Below are positions 23,651 to 35,719 of a DNA stretch of 64,000 nucleotides, piece by piece. The position numbers were made by a program, and so were the translations under genes. Source of the stretch: an uncultured Microthrixaceae bacterium (GTDB lineage Bacteria; Actinomycetota; Acidimicrobiia; Acidimicrobiales; DATDAH01); contig CAVPAN010000005.1 of the NCBI GenBank assembly GCA_963701565.1, forward strand, positions 409,672 through 473,671. Reading direction: 5' to 3'. Positions within the stretch are counted from its first letter, which is position 1. Every line of letters begins with the position of its first letter. The notes under the pieces were generated by a model. That model had not been told where the DNA came from. It made no database searches and was given only the letters and a program-made list of their open reading frames with translations.

Positions 23651-24607
23651 TCAGCGGGCCGCGGCGGCCACCCACTCCCAGAGCCGGGCCCGCTCCTGGT
23701 CGTCGGTCCCGGTGCCGGGGAGGTGCACGGTCGAGCGGCGTCGCCGGTCGAGCCAGAGCTCTCCGCTCGTTCGGGCCGGTTCGTCGGCCCAGAGGAGCCA
23801 GACGAGGGTGTCGGCGCCCTGGTCGGGCGTGCGGAGGGCCGGGCCGGTCACCTTGCGGAAGGTGGGCAGGCTGGTCTCGACACCGGGGGTGTCGGCCCAG
23901 CCCGGGTGCATGGCGTGCACGACGGCAGTGGGGGCGAGGCGCTCGGACCAGAGGCCCAGGAGCTCCACCTGCGCCCGTTTGGCCCGGGCGTACTGCGCCG
24001 TGCCCTTGTAACTCTCGGCGTCCATCTCGAGGTCGTCGACGTCGAGGCCCTGGCTGTACATGCCCCCCGAGGTGACCCAGAGGACCCGGGCCGGGGCCCG
24101 GAGCAGGGGGGTGAGGCGCTCGGTGAGCAGGTGGGGGGCGACGAGGTGGACCGCCAGGGTCGTCTCCAGGCCGTCGGCGGTCACGGTCTTGTCCGCCAGG
24201 AGGGCGCCGGCGTTGTGGACGATGGCATCGAACGGCTGCCCGAACGCCACGAGCTCGTCGGCCAGCTTCCGCACTGCGGCCAGGTCGGCCAGGTCGGCGA
24301 TGTGGGCCGTCACGGTCCCGTTCGGGTGGGCCACGTCCAACTCGGCCACGGCCTTGGTGGTCCGCTGCACGTCCCGGCCGACGACGAGGACGTCGGCGCC
24401 GAGGTCGAGCAGCTGTCCCGTGGCGGCCCGGCCGATGCCGGAGGTGGCTCCGGTCAGCAGGATGCGCTTCCCGGCCAGGGCGGCGGGCGGTGGGTCCTCC
24501 CAGTCGTCGAGGCGGCGCCGGGCCTCGTAGCCGAGGCGGCTGAACGACCCGAGGACCGTCGCCTCCAGGAGGAGGTCGACGGTCCGGGGGAGGGGGTTGG
24601 TGGTCAT
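23651..24607 (-). CDS. SDR family oxidoreductase (retinol-dehydrogenase-like)
   Basis: Internal ATG at 24607 (MTTNPLPRTV...). Contains ILLTGATSGIGRA, NAGAL and YARAKRA. Confidence 0.85.
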   Translation of the reverse strand: MTTNPLPRTVDLLLEATVLGSFSRLGYEARRRLDDWEDPPPAALAGKRILLTGATSGIGRAATGQLLDLGADVLVVGRDVQRTTKAVAELDVAHPNGTVTAHIADLADLAAVRKLADELVAFGQPFDAIVHNAGALLADKTVTADGLETTLAVHLVAPHLLTERLTPLLRAPARVLWVTSGGMYSQGLDVDDLEMDAESYKGTAQYARAKRAQVELLGLWSERLAPTAVVHAMHPGWADTPGVETSLPTFRKVTGPALRTPDQGADTLVWLLWADEPARTSGELWLDRRRRSTVHLPGTGTDDQERARLWEWVAAAAR

Positions 24608-24680
24608 GAGCTCTCGGGCGGGGGAGTGGGGGCGGGGAGGGGATTGCCCCGTCCCCACTCCTACCCGATGGGGAGACCGA

Positions 24681-25256
24681 TCAGGCGGGCGGCAGCAGGA
24701 CGCTGTCGATCACGTGGATGACGCCGTTGGTGGCGAAGATGTCGGTGGCGGTCACAGTGGCGTCATTGACGGTCACGGTCTCGCCGTCGACACCGATCTC
24801 CACCGTGGCTCCGTTGACCGTCGGCACCTCTTCGCCGTCGAGGGTGACGACGTCGGCCGCGGGGACCTCGCCCTCGACCACGTGGTACGTGAGGATCGAG
24901 GTCAGGGTCTCGGTGTCGGCGAGGAGCTCCTCGGCGGTCAGGCCGAGATCCTCGAGGGCGGCGGCGAAGGCGTCGTCGGTGGGGGCGAAGACCGTGTACG
25001 GGCCCTCACCCTGCAGGGTCTCGACCAGGCCGGCGGCCTCGACGGCGGCCACGAGGGTGGTGAAGTCACCGGCGGACGAGGCGGTCTCGACGATGTCCAT
25101 GGTGGGCTCGGCCACGGTGTCCTCGGGGGCCTCCGTGGTGTCGGTGGACTCGGTCGTGGCGGAGTCCTCCGACTCCGAGTCGTCGTCACCGCAGGCGGCG
25201 AACACGAGGGCGCCGGCCAACAGGAAGGACAGCAGCTTGAGAAGACGGCGGGACAT
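24681..25256 (-). CDS. fasciclin (FAS1) domain lipoprotein
   Basis: ATG at 25256 preceded by AAGGAG. Signal peptide [25 protein letters not shown]1 motifs [13 protein letters not shown] and [15 protein letters not shown]. Confidence 0.88.
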
Positions 25257-25281
25257 GGATTGGATTCTCCTTGGGGGGTGG

Positions 25282-25293
25282 TTTAGCACTAAG
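25282..25293. promoter_or_regulatory. operator repeat TTTAGCACTAAG (copy 1, just downstream of the -10)
   Basis: 12/12 identical to copy 2, which starts 19 bp away. Near-palindrome TTAGC-A-CTAA. Confidence 0.5.
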
Positions 25294-25294
25294 C

Positions 25295-25323
25295 ACTCTA
25301 TTTAGCACTAAGTCAAATGTCAA
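25295..25323 (-). promoter_or_regulatory. near-consensus sigma-A type promoter for the fasciclin gene
   Basis: Minus strand reads TTGACA (25323-25318), a 17-nt spacer, then TAGAGT (25300-25295). This lies about 40 nt upstream of the AAGGAG/ATG, in a local low-GC patch. Confidence 0.55.
25301..25314. promoter_or_regulatory. operator repeat TTTAGCACTAAGTC (copy 2, inside the -35/-10 spacer)
   Basis: Occupies the promoter spacer. The GACTTAG-Y-GCTAA core is shared with the site at 26161. Confidence 0.5.
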
Positions 25324-25339
25324 CCTCGGGTCGGAAAAA

Positions 25340-26152
25340 TCAGGAGGTGGCGCTGGCGCTGGTGGTGAGGAGGTCGAGGGCGGACCGGCCGTCGGCCGCC
25401 CACCGGTCGGCCCCGAGTCGGGCGGCCGTCGCCGCGTCGGGGATCGCCGCTCCGCCCGCCAAGACCGGAACCTGAACGCCGGCAGAGCGGAGGGCGGCGA
25501 CGGCGTCGCGGATCGGGCCGGTGGGGGTGATCGACAGCGTCATCCCCACGGCGACGAGTCCGTCGGCGTGGGTCGCGGCGTGGACGAACGCCTCGGCGGG
25601 CGTGTCGGGACCGAGGTCGACCACGGCGAACCCGCGGCCGCGGAGGGGATCGGCCAGGAAGGCCCCGGGCAGGCCGTGGGGATCACCGGACGCGGCGCCC
25701 AGCACGATCGTGCCCCGGCGCCGGCCGCGCCGGGTGAAGTTGCGGGCCAGGCGTCCCAGAAGGCGCTGCATGATCGCGGTGGCCTGGTGCTCCTCGGCGA
25801 TCGAGATCTCGCCCGCGTGCCAGCCGTCGCCGATGTCGACCATCGCACCGGCCAGCACGTCGATGTAGAGGGCCTCGGGGTCCATGCCGCCGGCAAGGGC
25901 AGCCTCGGCCACCGCCATGGCCCCGGCCTCGTCGCCCGCCACGAGGCGCCGGGCCAGGCGCTGGACGTGGTCGACCCGACCGGAACGGGGTGCCGCCTTG
26001 GCGGGCTCGCTCAGCGCGTCGAGGTCACGCTGGCGCACCGACCAGGTCGCGCCCTGCTTGGTGGCGGGCAGCTTCCCGGTCCGTACCCACCGGTACACGG
26101 TCATGTAGTGGACGCCGAGCCGGTCAGCGGCTTCCTGCAGGGTCAGCGTCAT
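25340..26152 (-). CDS. HTH (excisionase/MerR-superfamily type) plus cobalamin-binding transcription regulator, CarH/LitR-like
   Basis: 270 aa. N-terminal LTLQEAADRLGVHYMTVYRWVRTGKLPA. B12-binding_2-like helix bundle with GDGWHAGEISIAEEHQATAIM (W-x9-E-H). Rossmann B12 domain TIVLGAASGDPHGLPGAFLADPLRGRGFAVVDLG. Confidence 0.75.
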   Translation of the reverse strand: MTLTLQEAADRLGVHYMTVYRWVRTGKLPATKQGATWSVRQRDLDALSEPAKAAPRSGRVDHVQRLARRLVAGDEAGAMAVAEAALAGGMDPEALYIDVLAGAMVDIGDGWHAGEISIAEEHQATAIMQRLLGRLARNFTRRGRRRGTIVLGAASGDPHGLPGAFLADPLRGRGFAVVDLGPDTPAEAFVHAATHADGLVAVGMTLSITPTGPIRDAVAALRSAGVQVPVLAGGAAIPDAATAARLGADRWAADGRSALDLLTTSASATS

Positions 26153-26160
26153 GAGCCTAG

Positions 26161-26175
26161 ATTAGCGCTAAGTCT
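26161..26175. promoter_or_regulatory. operator copy 3 ATTAGCGCTAAGTCT over the regulator promoter and start
   Basis: Contains the perfect palindrome TTAGCGCTAA, 9 nt upstream of the regulator ATG (26152). It overlaps a TAATCT hexamer placed 6 nt before the ATG. Confidence 0.5.
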
Positions 26176-26194
26176 CGGCGGATGGTGACCCGGG

Positions 26195-27131
26195 TCAGTA
26201 CCCCGCGGCGCGGTCGACGACGTTGGCCAGCGGTCGGCCGGTCTCCCACCGGGCCAGCTCCTCGAGGAAGATGCCGAGGATGCGGTCGTAGCGCTCCGGG
26301 GAGCTCCACGAGATGTGGGGGCTGAGGTGGACCCGGGGGTGGTCGTACAGCCAGTGGCCCTCGGGTAGGGGCTCAGGGTCCACGGTGTCGAGTGAGGCCA
26401 GGGCCACCCGGCCGTCGTCCAGGGCGCGATCGAAGGGCGTCCTGGTCGACAAGGGCGCCACGGGCGATGTTGACCAGGTGGGCGCCCGGCCCGATCACCT
26501 CGAGGAGCGCCGGGCCCACGAGGTGCCGGGTGGCGGGGGTCGACGGCGCGGTCACGACCAGGTGGTCGCTCCACGCCGCCAGCTCGAGCAGGTCGGTGAC
26601 GATCTCGACCCCCTCGTCGGTGGCCGGGAGGGGCCGGCGGCGGAAGGCCTTCACCTCGCTGCCGAAGGGCAGGGCCCGGCGGGCCACCGCCTCGCCGATG
26701 CCGCCGTAGCCGATGATCGCCACGTGGCGTCCCGGCCAGCGTGCCGAGGTCGGCGAGGTTCCAGTGCTCGGGGGGCTCGGAGATCCAGGTCTGCGGCAGC
26801 TTCTTCTCGAAGGCCAGCATCTGGGTGATCACCCACTCCGAGATGGGTCCTGCTCCGGCGCCCGCGGGAGCAGGTCAGGGTCTGGTCCGGGCCGAGCCGG
26901 TCGAGGGGGAACTGGTCGACCCCGGTGCCGAAGTTGTGGACCCAGCGCACGCCCCGGCCGAGCAATGTCGGGCAGGTCGACCGCGAAGTAGTGGGAGGTC
27001 AGCAGCACCTCGCCGGCAGCGTCGTCCTCGAGGGCGTCGCCACTGCCGATGGACCGCACCGTGACGTCGGGGAACGCGGCCGCGATCTCGCCCGTGATCC
27101 GCTCGCCGAGCTGGCAGAGGACGGTGGTCAC
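26195..27131 (-). pseudogene. D-isomer-specific 2-hydroxyacid dehydrogenase, at least 4 frame changes
   Basis: Pieces are MTTVLCQLGERITGEIAAAFPDVTV... (ORF 26829..27131) and VRWVHNFGTGVDQFPLD (ORF 26651..26965). Further pieces are ITQMLAFEKKLPQTWISEPPEHW (ORF 26149..26832) and VAIIGYGGIGEAVARR...LVNIARGALVDQDAL (ORF 26373..26723). The last piece is ALDDGRVALASLDTVDPEPLPEGHWLYDHPRVHLSPHISW (ORF 26195..26461). Confidence 0.75.
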
Positions 27132-27144
27132 GCTCGGCCCCCGA

Positions 27145-28798
27145 TCAGGCGAACGCCTCGTCGATCAGGTCGGGCTCTCCGGCGGCCTGCTCGGCCGCCC
27201 ACCGGTAGTCGGGCTTGCCGCTGGGGGCGCGGGTGACGGCGTCGACGAAGTGGACCTGGCGGGGGACCTTGTAGCCGGCGATCTCGCCCCGGCAGTGCTC
27301 CTGCAGGTCCTTGATGTCGGTGAGGCCGCCCGTCGTCCCGGAGCTGCACGACGGCGGCGACCCGCTGGCCCCAGCGCTCGTCCTTCACGCCGATGACGGT
27401 GGCGTCGTAGACGGCGGGGTGGGACTTGACCGCGGCCTCGACCTCCTCGGGGTAGATCTTCTCGCCGCCGGAGTTGATGGACACCGAGCCCCGACCGAGC
27501 AGGGTGATGGAGCCGTCCTCCTCGACGGTGGCGAAGTCGCCCGGAACGGCGTAGCGGGTGCCGTCGGGGCCGGTGATGAACGTCTCGGCCGTCTTCACCT
27601 CGTCCTTGTAGTAGCCGAGGGGGATGTTGCCCTTGCGGGCCACCTTGCCGACGACGCCGGAGCCGGGCTGGACGATGTTGAAGTGCTCGTCGATCACGAC
27701 CGAGTCCGGCATGGCGGTGACGGTGGGGCCGCCCTTCATGGCGGTGTTGCCCTTGCCCACCACGACCATGCCGTTGTTGCCGGACTCCGATGCGCCGATG
27801 GCGTCGGTCAGGACCAGGTCGGGGAAGACCTCGAAGAACTGGTCCTTCACCGACGGGGAGAAGACCGCCGCGCTGCTGGAGAGCGAGAACAGGGAGGACA
27901 CGTCCCAGCGGTCGGGATGTTGCTGGAGGGTCTCGATGAGCGGCCGCCCCATGGCGTCGCCGGTGATCATCATCGAGTTGACACCTTCGCGCTGGATGAG
28001 CTCCCAGCACTCCTCGGCGTCGAAGTTGGCCACCAGCACGACCCGGTTGCCGGTCATGGCCTGGCTCATGAGGCCCCACTGGGTGGCCCCGTGCATCAGG
28101 GGGGCGATGGGGAAGAAGGTGATGGGGTCGGGGTAGGCCCGGGCGATGATCTCCTCCGGTTGGGTCGCCTTGACCTTGGTCATGGGGTCGATGCCGCCAC
28201 CGAGAGCCATGAAGACGTCCTCGTGGCGCCACACGACGCCTTTGGGCATGCCCGTGGTGCCACCCGTGTAGAGGATGTAGCGGTCGTCGGGGGATCGGGG
28301 TTCGAAGTCCCGCTCGGGGGAGGCGGCGGCGAGGGCGTCCTCGTAGGGCACGGCGTCGGGCAGGCCGACATCGGCATCGGAGCCGTCGTCGATCACGAGG
28401 GCATGGACCAGGTCCGGTAGCGAGTCGATGCAGTGCTTCACCCGGGGCCCGAAGCCCTGCTCGTAGACGAGGGCCTTCAGGTCGCTGTTGGCGAAGAGGT
28501 AGGACAGCTCGTGCTCGACGTAGCGGTAGTTGATGTTGATCCAGGTGGCCCGGATCTTGAACACGGCCCACAGGGTCTCGACCCACTCGGCGGAGTTGTG
28601 GGCGTAGATGCCGACGTGATCGCCCGGCTCCACGCCGTGGTCGGCCAGGTCGTGGGCCAGGCGGTTGGCCCGCGCCTCCATCTCGGCGTAGGTCCTGCGC
28701 TGGTCGCCGACCACCAGGTACTCCCGATCCGGGAAGGCGTCCACCGCCTGCTCGAACAGGTCCGCCAGGTTGAAGGTCCGTTCCCCCGGGTCACTCAC
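27145..28798 (-). pseudogene. acyl-CoA synthetase (AMP-forming), one C-terminal frameshift
   Basis: GTG at 28798. Contains YILYTGGTTGMPKGV and GDFATVEEDGSITLLGRGS. After VVQLRDDG the conserved tail ..TDIKDLQEHCRGEIAGYKVPRQVHFVDAVTRAPSGKPDYRWAAEQ..DEAFA* is in another frame and ends at 27145. The break is near 27335. Confidence 0.85.
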
Positions 28799-34368: not shown

Positions 34369-35719
34369 ATGCCTCCCGCTGCCGTCGCCCTCCGTGCGGC
34401 GGTGGACGGGACCCTGGAGGCCCGGGTCGACGACCGCTTCGGGCGCCCGGCGATGGTCGTCCGCTCGATCAGCGACCGTCGGGCCGGCGCGCTCGGGCTC
34501 CCCTGACGGCGACACGATCGCCCTTGCGGCCCGCACCGCGCGCCAGGCGGGCATGCCGATCGTGCTCATCCTCGCCTCGGGCGGGGCCGACGTGCACGAG
34601 GGCGTCGAGGCCCTCGTCGGCTGGGGTCGGGCGGCCAAGGAGCTGGTGGCCGGCTCGGGGATCATCCCGATCCTCGCCGCCGTCACGGGCCCGGCCGTAT
34701 CCGGGCCGGCGCTGCTGCTCGGCCTGGCCGACCTCGTGGTCATGACCGCCTCGTCATACGCCTACGTGTCCGGGCCCCGCATGGTCCGCCAGATGACTGG
34801 AGCCCACGTCACCTCGGAGGCGCTCGGCGGGGTTGCCGCCCAGCAACGTTCGACGGGTGTGGCGGCCCGGGTGGTGGCGACCGATGACGACGTCGAGGGC
34901 GCCCTCGCCGACCTCCTGGCCCACCTGCCCGACAGCGTCGACCACGAGCCGCCCCGCTGGCCCACCGTCGACCCCGTCGACCGTCCGACCCCTGAGGCCG
35001 GCGACGTGCTGCCCGCCGAGACCGCCGCGGGATACGACGTGCGGGAGGTCGTGCGCTCGGTGGTCGACGACGGCGAGTTCCTCGAGATCCGGGAGCTGTG
35101 GGCGCCCAACCTGGTGACCGGCTTCGCCACTGTCGACGGCCGGTCCGTCGGCATCGTGGCCAACCAGCCCCAGCAGTTGGCCGGGACGCTCGACATCAAC
35201 TGCTCGCACAAGGGCGCCCGCTTCGTGCAGTTCTGCGATGCCTTCAACCTGCCGCTGGTCACCTTGGTCGACACGTCGGGCTTCTACCCGGGCAAGGACA
35301 TGGAGTGGCGGGGCATGATCCGCCATGGCGCCCAGTTGGCCTTCGCCTACGCGCGGGCCACCGTGCCCCGGGTGGGCCTGACCCTGCGCAAGTCCTACGG
35401 CGGGGCCTACATCGTCATGGACTCCAAGACCATGGGCTGTGACCTGCACCTGGCCTGGCCGACGGCCGAGATCGCGGTGATGGGCGCCGAGGGGGCGGTC
35501 AGCATCCTGCACCGCCGGGTTGACCCTGAGGACCGCCTCGACCTGGTCGCCGCCTACGAGGAGCAGTACCTCAACCCCTGGATCGCTGCGGAGCGGGGCT
35601 ACATCGACGCCGTCATCGACCCCGCCGACACGAGACGGGAACTGGCGGCCGCCCTCGAGGTCCTGAGCACCAAGCGTGAGCGCATCGCCCCGAGACGCCA
35701 CGACAACCTCCCGCTCTGA
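34369..35719 (+). pseudogene. acyl-CoA carboxylase carboxyltransferase (beta) subunit, short form, one N-terminal frameshift
   Basis: MPPAAVALRAAVDGTLEARVDDRFGRPAMVVRSISDRRAGALG (frame of ORF 34105..34506) joins PDGDTIALAARTARQAGMPIVLILASGGADV... (ORF 34394..35719) near 34500. Also contains GIVANQPQQLAGTLDINCSHKGARFVQFCDAFNLPLVTLVDTSGF. Confidence 0.8.

Follow-up and report, generated by a model that had tools for sequence, protein, structure and literature searches.

INTRODUCTION

B12-dependent photoreceptors are known in mechanistic detail only for the MerR-type regulators of the CarH/LitR group (Thermus, Myxococcus, Bacillus, Streptomyces). In these proteins an N-terminal winged helix is joined by a flexible linker to a four-helix bundle and a Rossmann-type B12-binding domain, with a Wx9EH element and a lower-ligand His. 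Their operators lie over promoter elements, and the regulator is either autoregulated or encoded beside its targets. The CarH operator consists of three tandem 11-bp direct repeats (Thermus, Myxococcus; CarH-DNA structure 5C8E). As outlined in PMC4557120, CarH is an adenosylcobalamin (AdoCbl)-bound tetramer in the dark and a monomer after light. Here we describe a locus within a 64,000-nt stretch of an uncultured Microthrixaceae bacterium (contig CAVPAN010000005.1; "the window" throughout), in which a gene for a regulator with an HTH_17 domain and a B12-binding module precedes a gene for a fasciclin-domain lipoprotein. The promoter between the two genes carries a pair of identical palindromic repeats that probably serve as operators for the regulator.

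The SignatureFinder survey (PMC11796333) gives GxxW, EH, GxxH and GxxxP as the signature of light-responsive cobalamin-binding domains, and notes B12 light-sensor domains fused to helix-turn-helix (HTH) domains other than that of CarH. The same source describes CtMerR of Chloracidobacterium thermophilum as an AdoCbl-bound tetramer in the dark that becomes monomeric after light. A survey of photoglobins (PMC8717448) places HTH_17 among the domains fused to B12/photoglobin modules, and was the only literature that we found on the combination of HTH_17 with B12. No operator or regulon for HTH_17 or other non-CarH HTH proteins with B12 modules is described in the searchable literature (subscription-only papers lay outside the search), and a light/dark RNA-seq paper on freshwater actinobacteria makes no mention of a B12 regulator or of the palindrome.

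RESULTS

Two identical repeats in a near-consensus promoter

An 83-bp gap (25257-25339), which reads ...ccgaggTTGACAtttgaCTTAGTGCTAAATAGAGTgCTTAGTGCTAAAccaccccccAAGGAGaatccaatccATG on the minus strand, separates the regulator stop codon (25340) from the fasciclin ATG (25256) (all features are listed in Table 1). A sequence-only reading of the window had placed here a promoter close to the sigma-70/sigma-A consensus and two identical 12-bp repeats in a layout typical of repressors, with the adjacent B12-binding regulator as the candidate binder. The promoter is confirmed. TTGACA and TAGAGT, separated by the 17-nt spacer tttgacttagtgctaaa (minus strand 25323..25295), agree with the consensus at 10 of 12 positions, and this is the sole promoter-like match in the 12 kb between 20 and 32 kb (0.2 expected in shuffled sequence). 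The 17-nt spacing falls within the 16-18 nt of sigma-70/sigma-A promoters, and the promoter is conserved in orthologues (see below).

An exact scan recovered the two copies of CTTAGTGCTAAA as described, both on the minus strand with starts 19 bp apart. The first (O1, core TTAGTGCTAA) lies in the promoter spacer and the second (O2) starts one base past the -10, positions that support a repressor-type arrangement. With up to two mismatches allowed, CTTAGTGCTAAA has 3 matches in 64 kb where 0.10 are expected, and none of 100 shuffles reached 3. The core TTAGNNCTAA is found at exactly three places in 64 kb (O1, O2 and a third site, O3; 0 expected), with one extra match at two mismatches, at 35664; beyond O1-O3, no further intergenic sites with up to two mismatches were found in the 64-kb window. 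The half-sites had been read as near-palindromic TTAGC/GCTAA. Each repeat is indeed a pseudo-palindrome, but is better described as (A)T-TTAG-YR-CTAA-A(T), of 12-14 bp.

An alternative extended -10, TGcTAAATA (25298-25306, minus strand), overlaps O1 and lies 4 nt upstream of TAGAGT. Both overlapping hexamers are conserved in an alignment of 11 loci, and the sequence may therefore represent a promoter with two -10 elements or two start sites.

A third site upstream of the regulator gene

The third 12-bp copy, CTTAGCGCTAAT at 26161-26172, falls within two mismatches of the repeat, lies just upstream of the regulator gene and contains the perfect palindrome O3. The region reads ...ccgccgagaCTTAGCGCTAATCTaggctcATG, and the right half of O3 overlaps the -10-like hexamer TAATCT, from which the regulator ATG is separated by 6 nt. 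Since the A of the start codon lies at the distance from TAATCT expected of a transcription start, we infer that the regulator mRNA is leaderless and autoregulated. Leaderless mRNAs are common in Actinomycetota. The consensus of the aligned regions upstream of the regulator is TTAGCGCTAATCT-N6-[A/G]TG, which is kept in 7/11 loci with the core TTA.(C)GCTAA invariant; this conservation supports both the autoregulatory site and the leaderless start.

Sites and spacing are conserved in orthologous loci

Seven more orthologous loci were obtained by exact protein look-ups, with regulators 67-83% identical to ours. In all seven the gene order is acyl-CoA synthetase, 2-hydroxyacid dehydrogenase, regulator and fasciclin, followed by the SDR-family oxidoreductase in 6/7 (it is absent from L206). 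When the regulator-fasciclin spacers of 11 loci were aligned, the only conserved islands were GGTTG(ACA), site 1, TAnAGT, site 2, a C-rich leader and AAGGAG, and the sequence upstream of the -35 had diverged. The distance between the two sites is 19 bp in all 8 loci that have exact paired sites (the window included).

The palindrome is enriched around homologues of the regulator

Homologues of the regulator were collected in a scan of one genome per species. At least 571 loci were confirmed (571 of the 600 stretches inspected) and the best 80 were kept (501 kb), chosen solely for encoding a regulator homologue. They come mostly from Acidimicrobiia metagenome-assembled genomes (MAGs) of the Microthrixaceae, Iamiaceae, Ilumatobacteraceae and Acidimicrobiaceae, and some from bins labelled Dormibacterota or Streptosporangiales; most of the related sequences are MAGs, some taxonomic labels are doubtful and the gene calls are heuristic. 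The caller, based on GC content at third codon positions, over-extends gene starts while leaving 41% of the sequence "non-coding", and for that reason the 42 of 48 sites scored as intergenic were not used as evidence.

TTAGYRCTAA occurs 45 times, in 31 of the 80 loci, against 0-1 times in 20 shuffles that kept composition in 200-bp blocks, a ~300-fold enrichment; a further 36 sites have one mismatch, where ~9 are expected by chance. A position weight matrix of 48 sites (window included) is two-fold symmetric, a-T-TTAG-YR-CTAA-A-t, with T at -1 in 34/48 and A at +1 in 38/48, and with the left half TTTAG conserved as strongly as the right half. The centre is TG or CA in 43 sites (23 TG, 20 CA), TA in 3 and CG in 2.

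We also scanned metagenome contigs motif first, for two sites 5-30 bp apart, which returned 120 stretches. Most of these were of low GC content (where by our own estimate such pairs are expected by chance) or were tandem or CRISPR-like arrays. Seventeen had a GC content of at least 0.55, and in 7/17 a regulator homologue lay beside the sites. Regular TTAGYRCTAA arrays with periods of ~12-77 bp were seen in low-GC contigs (0.25-0.50; L087, L093, L109, L128, L139, L156, L178, L182 and L183); these have no B12 regulator and are unrelated tandem or CRISPR-like repeats.

Two departures from the motif stand ahead of the regulator gene in particular loci. A symmetric variant, GTTCAGTGCTGAA, in which TCAG...CTGA replaces TTAG...CTAA, is found ~60 nt upstream of the regulator in L013 (2939), L027 (2939) and L035 (2940), with a degenerate copy in L039; these belong to one sub-clade. 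A switch in specificity by co-variation of recognition helix and operator was considered and rejected, as the helices of L013, L027 and L035 are the same as the others; the variant appears to be tolerated. Loci L012, L029 and L032 have no TTAG-YR-CTAA upstream of the regulator and share instead a conserved stretch ~60-75 nt upstream, cgggCGAATTCGcgtttc, which includes a GAATTC-centred palindrome and may be a different control element. Looked up verbatim in the literature, TTAGCACTAA and TTAGTGCTAA turned up in nothing but primers and unrelated sequences.

The regulator combines an HTH_17 domain with a light-sensor-type B12 module

Residues 3-46 of the regulator match HTH_17 (PF12728) with 49.7 bits (Pfam cut-off 27), and the excisionase-family DNA-binding model TIGR01764 scores 48.2 bits against a cut-off of 28.8. 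B12-binding_2 (residues 64-135, 67 bits) and B12-binding (residues 148-260, 37.7 bits) both exceed their Pfam cut-offs. Pfam MerR reaches 16.3 bits, below its cut-off of 28.2, and so the protein does not qualify as a MerR-family HTH protein; by PF12728, TIGR01764 and fold it has an HTH_17/excisionase-type winged helix.

The B12 module carries G108-D-G-W111, E121-H122, G156-D-P-H159 and G181-P-D-T-P185, i.e. all four elements of the light-responsive signature (PMC11796333). Across 29 homologues of 50-88% identity G108, W111, E121, H122, H159, G181 and P185 are invariant, and G156 is kept in at least 90%. The arrangement W111-x9-E121-H122 with the lower-ligand H159 is that of the CarH-family B12 module; in CarH of Thermus the corresponding residues are W131, E141, H142 and H177. 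Among solved chains, the closest in sequence are the B12 domains of photocobilin (8J2W/8J2X, 2e-23) and CtMerR (8JBS, 8e-13), followed by CarH (5C8A, 2e-10; 5C8D, 6e-10), all matching within residues 61-263 only. MtgC/MtbC and MetH also match the B12 domain (1e-19 to 1e-11), with MetH among the PDB hits.

In an AlphaFold2 model (predicted local distance difference test, pLDDT, 92.9) the winged helix spans residues 1-48 and is joined by a disordered linker (~49-61) to the four-helix bundle, with the Rossmann domain after it. With Foldseek, the predicted B12 module superposes on 8J2W with a root-mean-square deviation (rmsd) of 2.1 A over 206 columns and on CtMerR (8JBS) at 2.4 A, and the full-length model aligns to CarH 5C8D/5C8E over ~280 columns. 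The DNA-binding domain modelled alone (pLDDT 85.5) is predicted to consist of E2-4, H5-12, H16-25, E30-33, E36-40 and H41-48. Its best fold matches are Xis of mycobacteriophage Pukovnik, BldC (Streptomyces) and RacA (Bacillus) (rmsd 1.3-1.6 A, 31-34% identity), with 4J2N and 6AMK at the top (rmsd 1.3-1.5 A) and the MerR N-domains of NmlR and MtaN next. None of these three best matches to residues 1-50 has the MerR coiled coil, so that another part must bring about multimerisation on DNA. Around the recognition helix the sequence GVHYMT[AV]YR[WY]VR is near-invariant in all 80 loci, which fits a common operator. From sequence and models, the regulator appears to follow the CarH design, a MerR-like winged helix tethered to an oligomerising B12 sensor, with a DNA-binding domain drawn from another Pfam family.

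Genes downstream of the sites

In at least 12 of the 80 loci a site immediately precedes the regulator gene. Other sites are upstream of genes for fasciclin proteins (7 loci), ECF (extracytoplasmic function) sigma factors (4 loci), SRPBCC (Polyketide_cyc2) proteins (4 loci) and amine-oxidase-type flavoproteins (3 loci). In 7 loci (L009, L010, L011, L015, L026, L033 and L066) the site precedes a gene of an unnamed family that is itself encoded ahead of the regulator. These proteins (~200-230 aa, ...HWLDRHLTGD...APTR.HP...) gave no Pfam or NCBIfam match. One or two operator sites stand ahead of the genes (L009 1507-2328; L010 1262-1885; L015 2270-2956), in L009 and L015 as two inverted copies, spaced 18 bp, that fill the interval from the -10 to the ribosome-binding site, and to judge from this placement the family is probably a core member of the regulon.

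Single loci add further candidates. L030 has a heliorhodopsin gene (1451-2347; PF18761, 3e-94) and a fasciclin gene that diverge from a 116-bp region with one site, which overlaps the fasciclin -10. In L034 a polyprenyl synthase gene and ispH/lytB diverge from 64 bp that likewise hold one site, and in L036 a site is ~30 nt ahead of a gene of the sigma-70 family, with the regulator gene next in line. An RPE65 carotenoid oxygenase was considered as a target in L036 and withdrawn, the gene being ~0.7 kb from the site.

Nearly every site overlaps or adjoins a -10. L004 and L030 share the layout TTGCCG/TTGCCT-17-TAAAT[TA], with the right half of the single operator as the -10, and in L065 and L076 the layout is TTGACG-17-TAAAAA, with the -10 inside the first of two sites.

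A small Zn_ribbon_TFIIB-type protein is encoded just downstream of the fasciclin/SDR genes in L204 (3135-3846), L206 (4086-5767), L201 (5207-5500) and L207 (5093-5425), and in L204 and L206 an ECF sigma gene comes after it. This protein is possibly an anti-sigma factor, and by analogy with LitR-LitS the pair suggests a second regulatory layer.

Gene content of the locus

The signal peptide of the fasciclin protein, from the translation, is of the lipoprotein type (...LVFAAC/GDDD). In at least 15 related loci an SDR homologue directly follows the regulator or the fasciclin gene; the SDR enzyme is thus a conserved partner of the regulator, and possibly co-transcribed with the fasciclin gene.

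Upstream of the regulator are genes for a 2-hydroxyacid dehydrogenase and an acyl-CoA synthetase. The former (26195-27131, minus strand) is broken over three frames (26829-27131, 26373-26723 and 26195-26461), and in the latter open reading frame (27128-28798) the C-terminal ~65 residues (27128-27330, minus strand) seem to be out of frame. The orthologues in L002 and L201-L203 are intact single open reading frames of ~310 and ~550 aa, respectively. The breaks are likely to be indel sequencing errors (perhaps from a long-read MAG) or recent pseudogenes.

Rfam covariance models run over 24000-27000 gave no match at the locus, and two sub-threshold chance hits elsewhere. A riboswitch or other RNA element was rejected on this result, and also because hairpin formation is impossible for a palindrome of 10 bp whose centre is 2 nt, and O2 alone would be transcribed.

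Table 1. Positions of genes and control elements at the regulator-fasciclin locus, in window coordinates
Feature	Position	Strand	Basis and remarks
SDR-family oxidoreductase gene	23651..24604	-	Pfam adh_short; start at 24604 or 24658; follows the fasciclin gene
Fasciclin-domain lipoprotein gene, 191 aa, lipobox FAAC	24681..25256	-	PF02469, 9.8e-38; presumed regulated gene
Ribosome-binding site AAGGAG	25267..25272	-	10 nt ahead of ATG at 25256; conserved in orthologue alignment
Candidate operator O2, CTTAGTGCTAAA (core 25283-25292)	25282..25293	-	Begins 1 nt past the -10, over the expected transcription start
-10 hexamer TAGAGT	25295..25300	-	17 nt from the -35; TAnAGT + CTAAATA conserved in alignment
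Candidate operator O1, CTTAGTGCTAAA (core TTAGTGCTAA, 25302-25311)	25301..25312	-	Within promoter spacer, abutting/overlapping the -10; kept in 11 orthologous promoters
-35 hexamer TTGACA, fasciclin promoter	25318..25323	-	Consensus scan; GGTTG unchanged across the 11 aligned promoters
Regulator gene, 270 aa (HTH_17 + B12-binding_2 + B12-binding)	25340..26152	-	Pfam, alignments, structure models
-10-like hexamer TAATCT	26159..26164	-	Overlaps O3; start-codon A (26152) 7 nt downstream
Candidate operator O3, perfect palindrome TTAGCGCTAA	26162..26171	.	Upstream of the regulator gene; autoregulation candidate

DISCUSSION

The sequence-only reading had named the adjacent regulator as the likely binder of the repeats, and the enrichment of the motif, the sites in the promoter of the regulator itself and the conserved 19-bp spacing all favour this. 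By sequence, the HTH_17 + B12-binding protein is very probably the factor that binds the motif, and by far the best candidate. Overall we put at roughly 70% the probability that the TTAG-YR-CTAA palindromes are operators of an adjacent CarH-like, AdoCbl-dependent photoreceptor repressor with a different DNA-binding domain.

Steric repression is proposed because the spacer, the -10 and the start point, where the sites lie, are the classic positions for it. In the dark, by analogy with CarH and CtMerR, the B12-loaded regulator would oligomerise through its B12-binding domains. The tethered winged helices would then occupy O1 in the spacer and O2 at the transcription start, excluding RNA polymerase from the fasciclin(-SDR) unit, and would also occupy O3, over the -10 of the presumed leaderless regulator promoter, so that the regulator would repress its own gene. 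Once light had photolysed the Co-C bond, the oligomer would dissociate and bind DNA less tightly, which would release both promoters. What is shown is the sequence anatomy and its non-randomness, the conservation of the sites, their co-occurrence with the regulator family and the domain architecture with its signature residues; DNA binding, repression as opposed to activation, the form of B12, light as the signal, the stoichiometry and the transcription starts are inferred. By looping the DNA, one tetramer might even bridge the 870 bp between the promoter pair and the autoregulatory site.

Relation to known systems

The locus shares with CarH/LitR the domain architecture and B12 signature set out above, candidate operators over promoter elements, a regulator that is probably autoregulated or beside its targets, ECF sigma genes among the predicted targets as in LitR-LitS, and a predicted light-protective regulon. 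The differences are an HTH_17 (Xis/BldC-like) DNA-binding domain in place of Pfam MerR, a 12-14-bp palindrome, single or paired 15-30 bp apart, where CarH has direct repeats, and fasciclin, SDR, SRPBCC and amine-oxidase genes as candidate targets rather than crt operons. Judged by sequence, the regulator looks like a functional counterpart of CarH/LitR that has the B12 signature but falls outside the family by Pfam MerR, by the NCBI model and by its operator.

CtMerR has the same B12 signature and a divergent DNA-binding domain, for which a separate operator is to be expected; the similarity is modest, however (E 8e-13, over the B12 domain only). Unlike the photoglobin fusions, our regulator family has no photoglobin/biliverdin domain. 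RacA is a precedent for two winged helices of this type on one inverted repeat, in its case 14 bp long and GC-rich; BldC and Xis are precedents for head-to-tail arrays on direct repeats (5I44, 6AMA). None of these three is fused to a B12 domain, whereas here such a domain is present and the palindrome is AT-rich in a 72% GC genome.

The singlet-oxygen and blue-light regulons of sigmaE-ChrR/LitR (Rhodobacter sphaeroides, Vibrio cholerae, Pseudomonas) also contain fasciclin, SDR, amine-oxidase-like flavoprotein and ECF sigma genes, an overlap at the level of gene family only, under another type of regulator and another DNA signal. The fasciclin gene RSP_1409 and the SDR gene RSP_1087 are among the singlet-oxygen-responsive genes of R. 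sphaeroides (PMC7074977), and the fasciclin gene sll1483 is induced by singlet oxygen in Synechocystis (bioRxiv 10.1101/2023.09.22.558817). A light-induced fasciclin lipoprotein therefore has precedent in RSP_1409 and sll1483, under unrelated regulators.

Points against a light-controlled repressor and alternative explanations

Several observations weigh against our interpretation. The NCBIfam model for CarH (NF052513, TransRegCarH) scores 60.4 bits against a cut-off of 400 and matches residues 64-249 only. An exact site is missing within ~3 kb in 49/80 related loci, and with up to one mismatch allowed a site is found in 54/80, but ~9 such hits are expected by chance. The spacing of paired sites in other promoters varies (15, 18, 19, 20, 23, 26, 27 and 30 bp), which would fit flexible tethers rather than a rigid dimer of dimers. 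A distance of only 6-7 bp separates the half-sites of the 12-14-bp palindrome, which would be unusual if two winged helices were to bind. The residue that follows W111 is His, as is H132 of CarH, only in the closest homologues, and the light-state chemistry may differ as a result. Finally, a B12-binding domain with these residues could report the supply of B12 instead of light.

The last two points lead to the alternative that survives best, although we regard it as improbable: the same repressor acts on the same operator but responds to cobalamin availability or redox, and photochemistry is irrelevant in vivo. It draws on the relationship of the B12 domain to the non-photoreceptor corrinoid proteins MtgC/MtbC and MetH, and on the patchy occurrence of the His that serves as the upper axial ligand of light-state CarH. 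Yet all four light-response signature elements (PMC11796333) are invariant, the closest solved B12 domains (photocobilin, CtMerR, CarH) are those of photoreceptors, and the neighbours of the motif are related to light and not to B12 metabolism or transport. Light is favoured over B12 supply on the strength of the signature residues together with the heliorhodopsin, isoprenoid/carotenoid-precursor, ECF sigma and SDR/amine-oxidase/SRPBCC neighbours.

It is more doubtful still that the palindrome belongs to a different, unlinked factor, such as a global regulator with a CIRCE-like TTAGCAC/GTGCTAA half-site, whose regulon the B12 regulator merely shares. TTAGCAC and GTGCTAA are the outer halves of CIRCE, the HrcA operator, and some high-GC metagenome stretches with paired TTAGCGCTAA sites have no regulator homologue; many of these contigs, however, are short or have the site at the contig end. 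An unlinked factor is unlikely because the motif was found through the regulator and lies on its own promoter. The enrichment was seen in loci picked only through the regulator, the motif stands directly ahead of the regulator gene in at least 12 loci and 7 orthologous ones, as autoregulation predicts, and the recognition helix is as conserved as the motif. CIRCE/HrcA itself was rejected: there is no TTAGCACTC-N9-GAGTGCTAA match in the window with up to three mismatches, and the neighbouring genes do not encode chaperones.

We give little credence to the motif being a promoter element, with GTGCTAAAT as an extended -10 (TGnTAAAT) and its repetition making tandem promoters. In L004, L030, L065 and L076 a CTAAAT/CTAAAA half 17 nt from the -35 does act as the -10, and TGcTAAATA overlaps O1 in the window. 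This reading is insufficient, as it explains only the right half of the motif in one orientation: the motif is two-fold symmetric with an equally conserved TTTAG half, both orientations are used (those with a CA centre lacking TG), and many copies, O2 among them, are found past the -10 and beside the ribosome-binding site.

Chance similarity is negligible: the regulator-fasciclin spacer is the most AT-rich 100 bp of its neighbourhood (48% GC in a 72% GC window), which raises the odds of A/T-rich words, but the counts far exceed those of shuffled sequence both in the window and across related loci, and the sites are conserved in otherwise diverged spacers.

Implications

A probable AdoCbl-dependent photoreceptor repressor at this locus invites a broader proposal, towards which we lean with only slight conviction. 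HTH_17-B12 proteins would form a distinct, widespread class of cobalamin photoreceptor-repressors with their own operator, ATTTAG-YR-CTAAAT, switching on a regulon for light or photo-oxidative stress. In this class the operator may often double as the -10 of leaderless or strong promoters, and the regulon may take in fasciclin lipoproteins, an SDR/SRPBCC/amine-oxidase module, sigma factors and isoprenoid genes, joined in some genomes by heliorhodopsin.

The locus offers a conserved candidate operator, a compact promoter-operator cassette (-35/-10 plus two 12-bp sites) and a predicted regulon for a regulator family that is common in Acidimicrobiia. If our interpretation is correct, at least one genome would have heliorhodopsin beside a promoter under light control, and the locus would provide an orthogonal green-light switch for high-GC hosts. 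It would also link fasciclin lipoproteins and a conserved SDR enzyme to photo-oxidative stress in Gram-positives. It would explain light sensing in non-phototrophic, largely uncultured actinobacteria, and would give a first transcriptional handle on the light responses of the actinobacteria that are abundant in soil, water and activated sludge.

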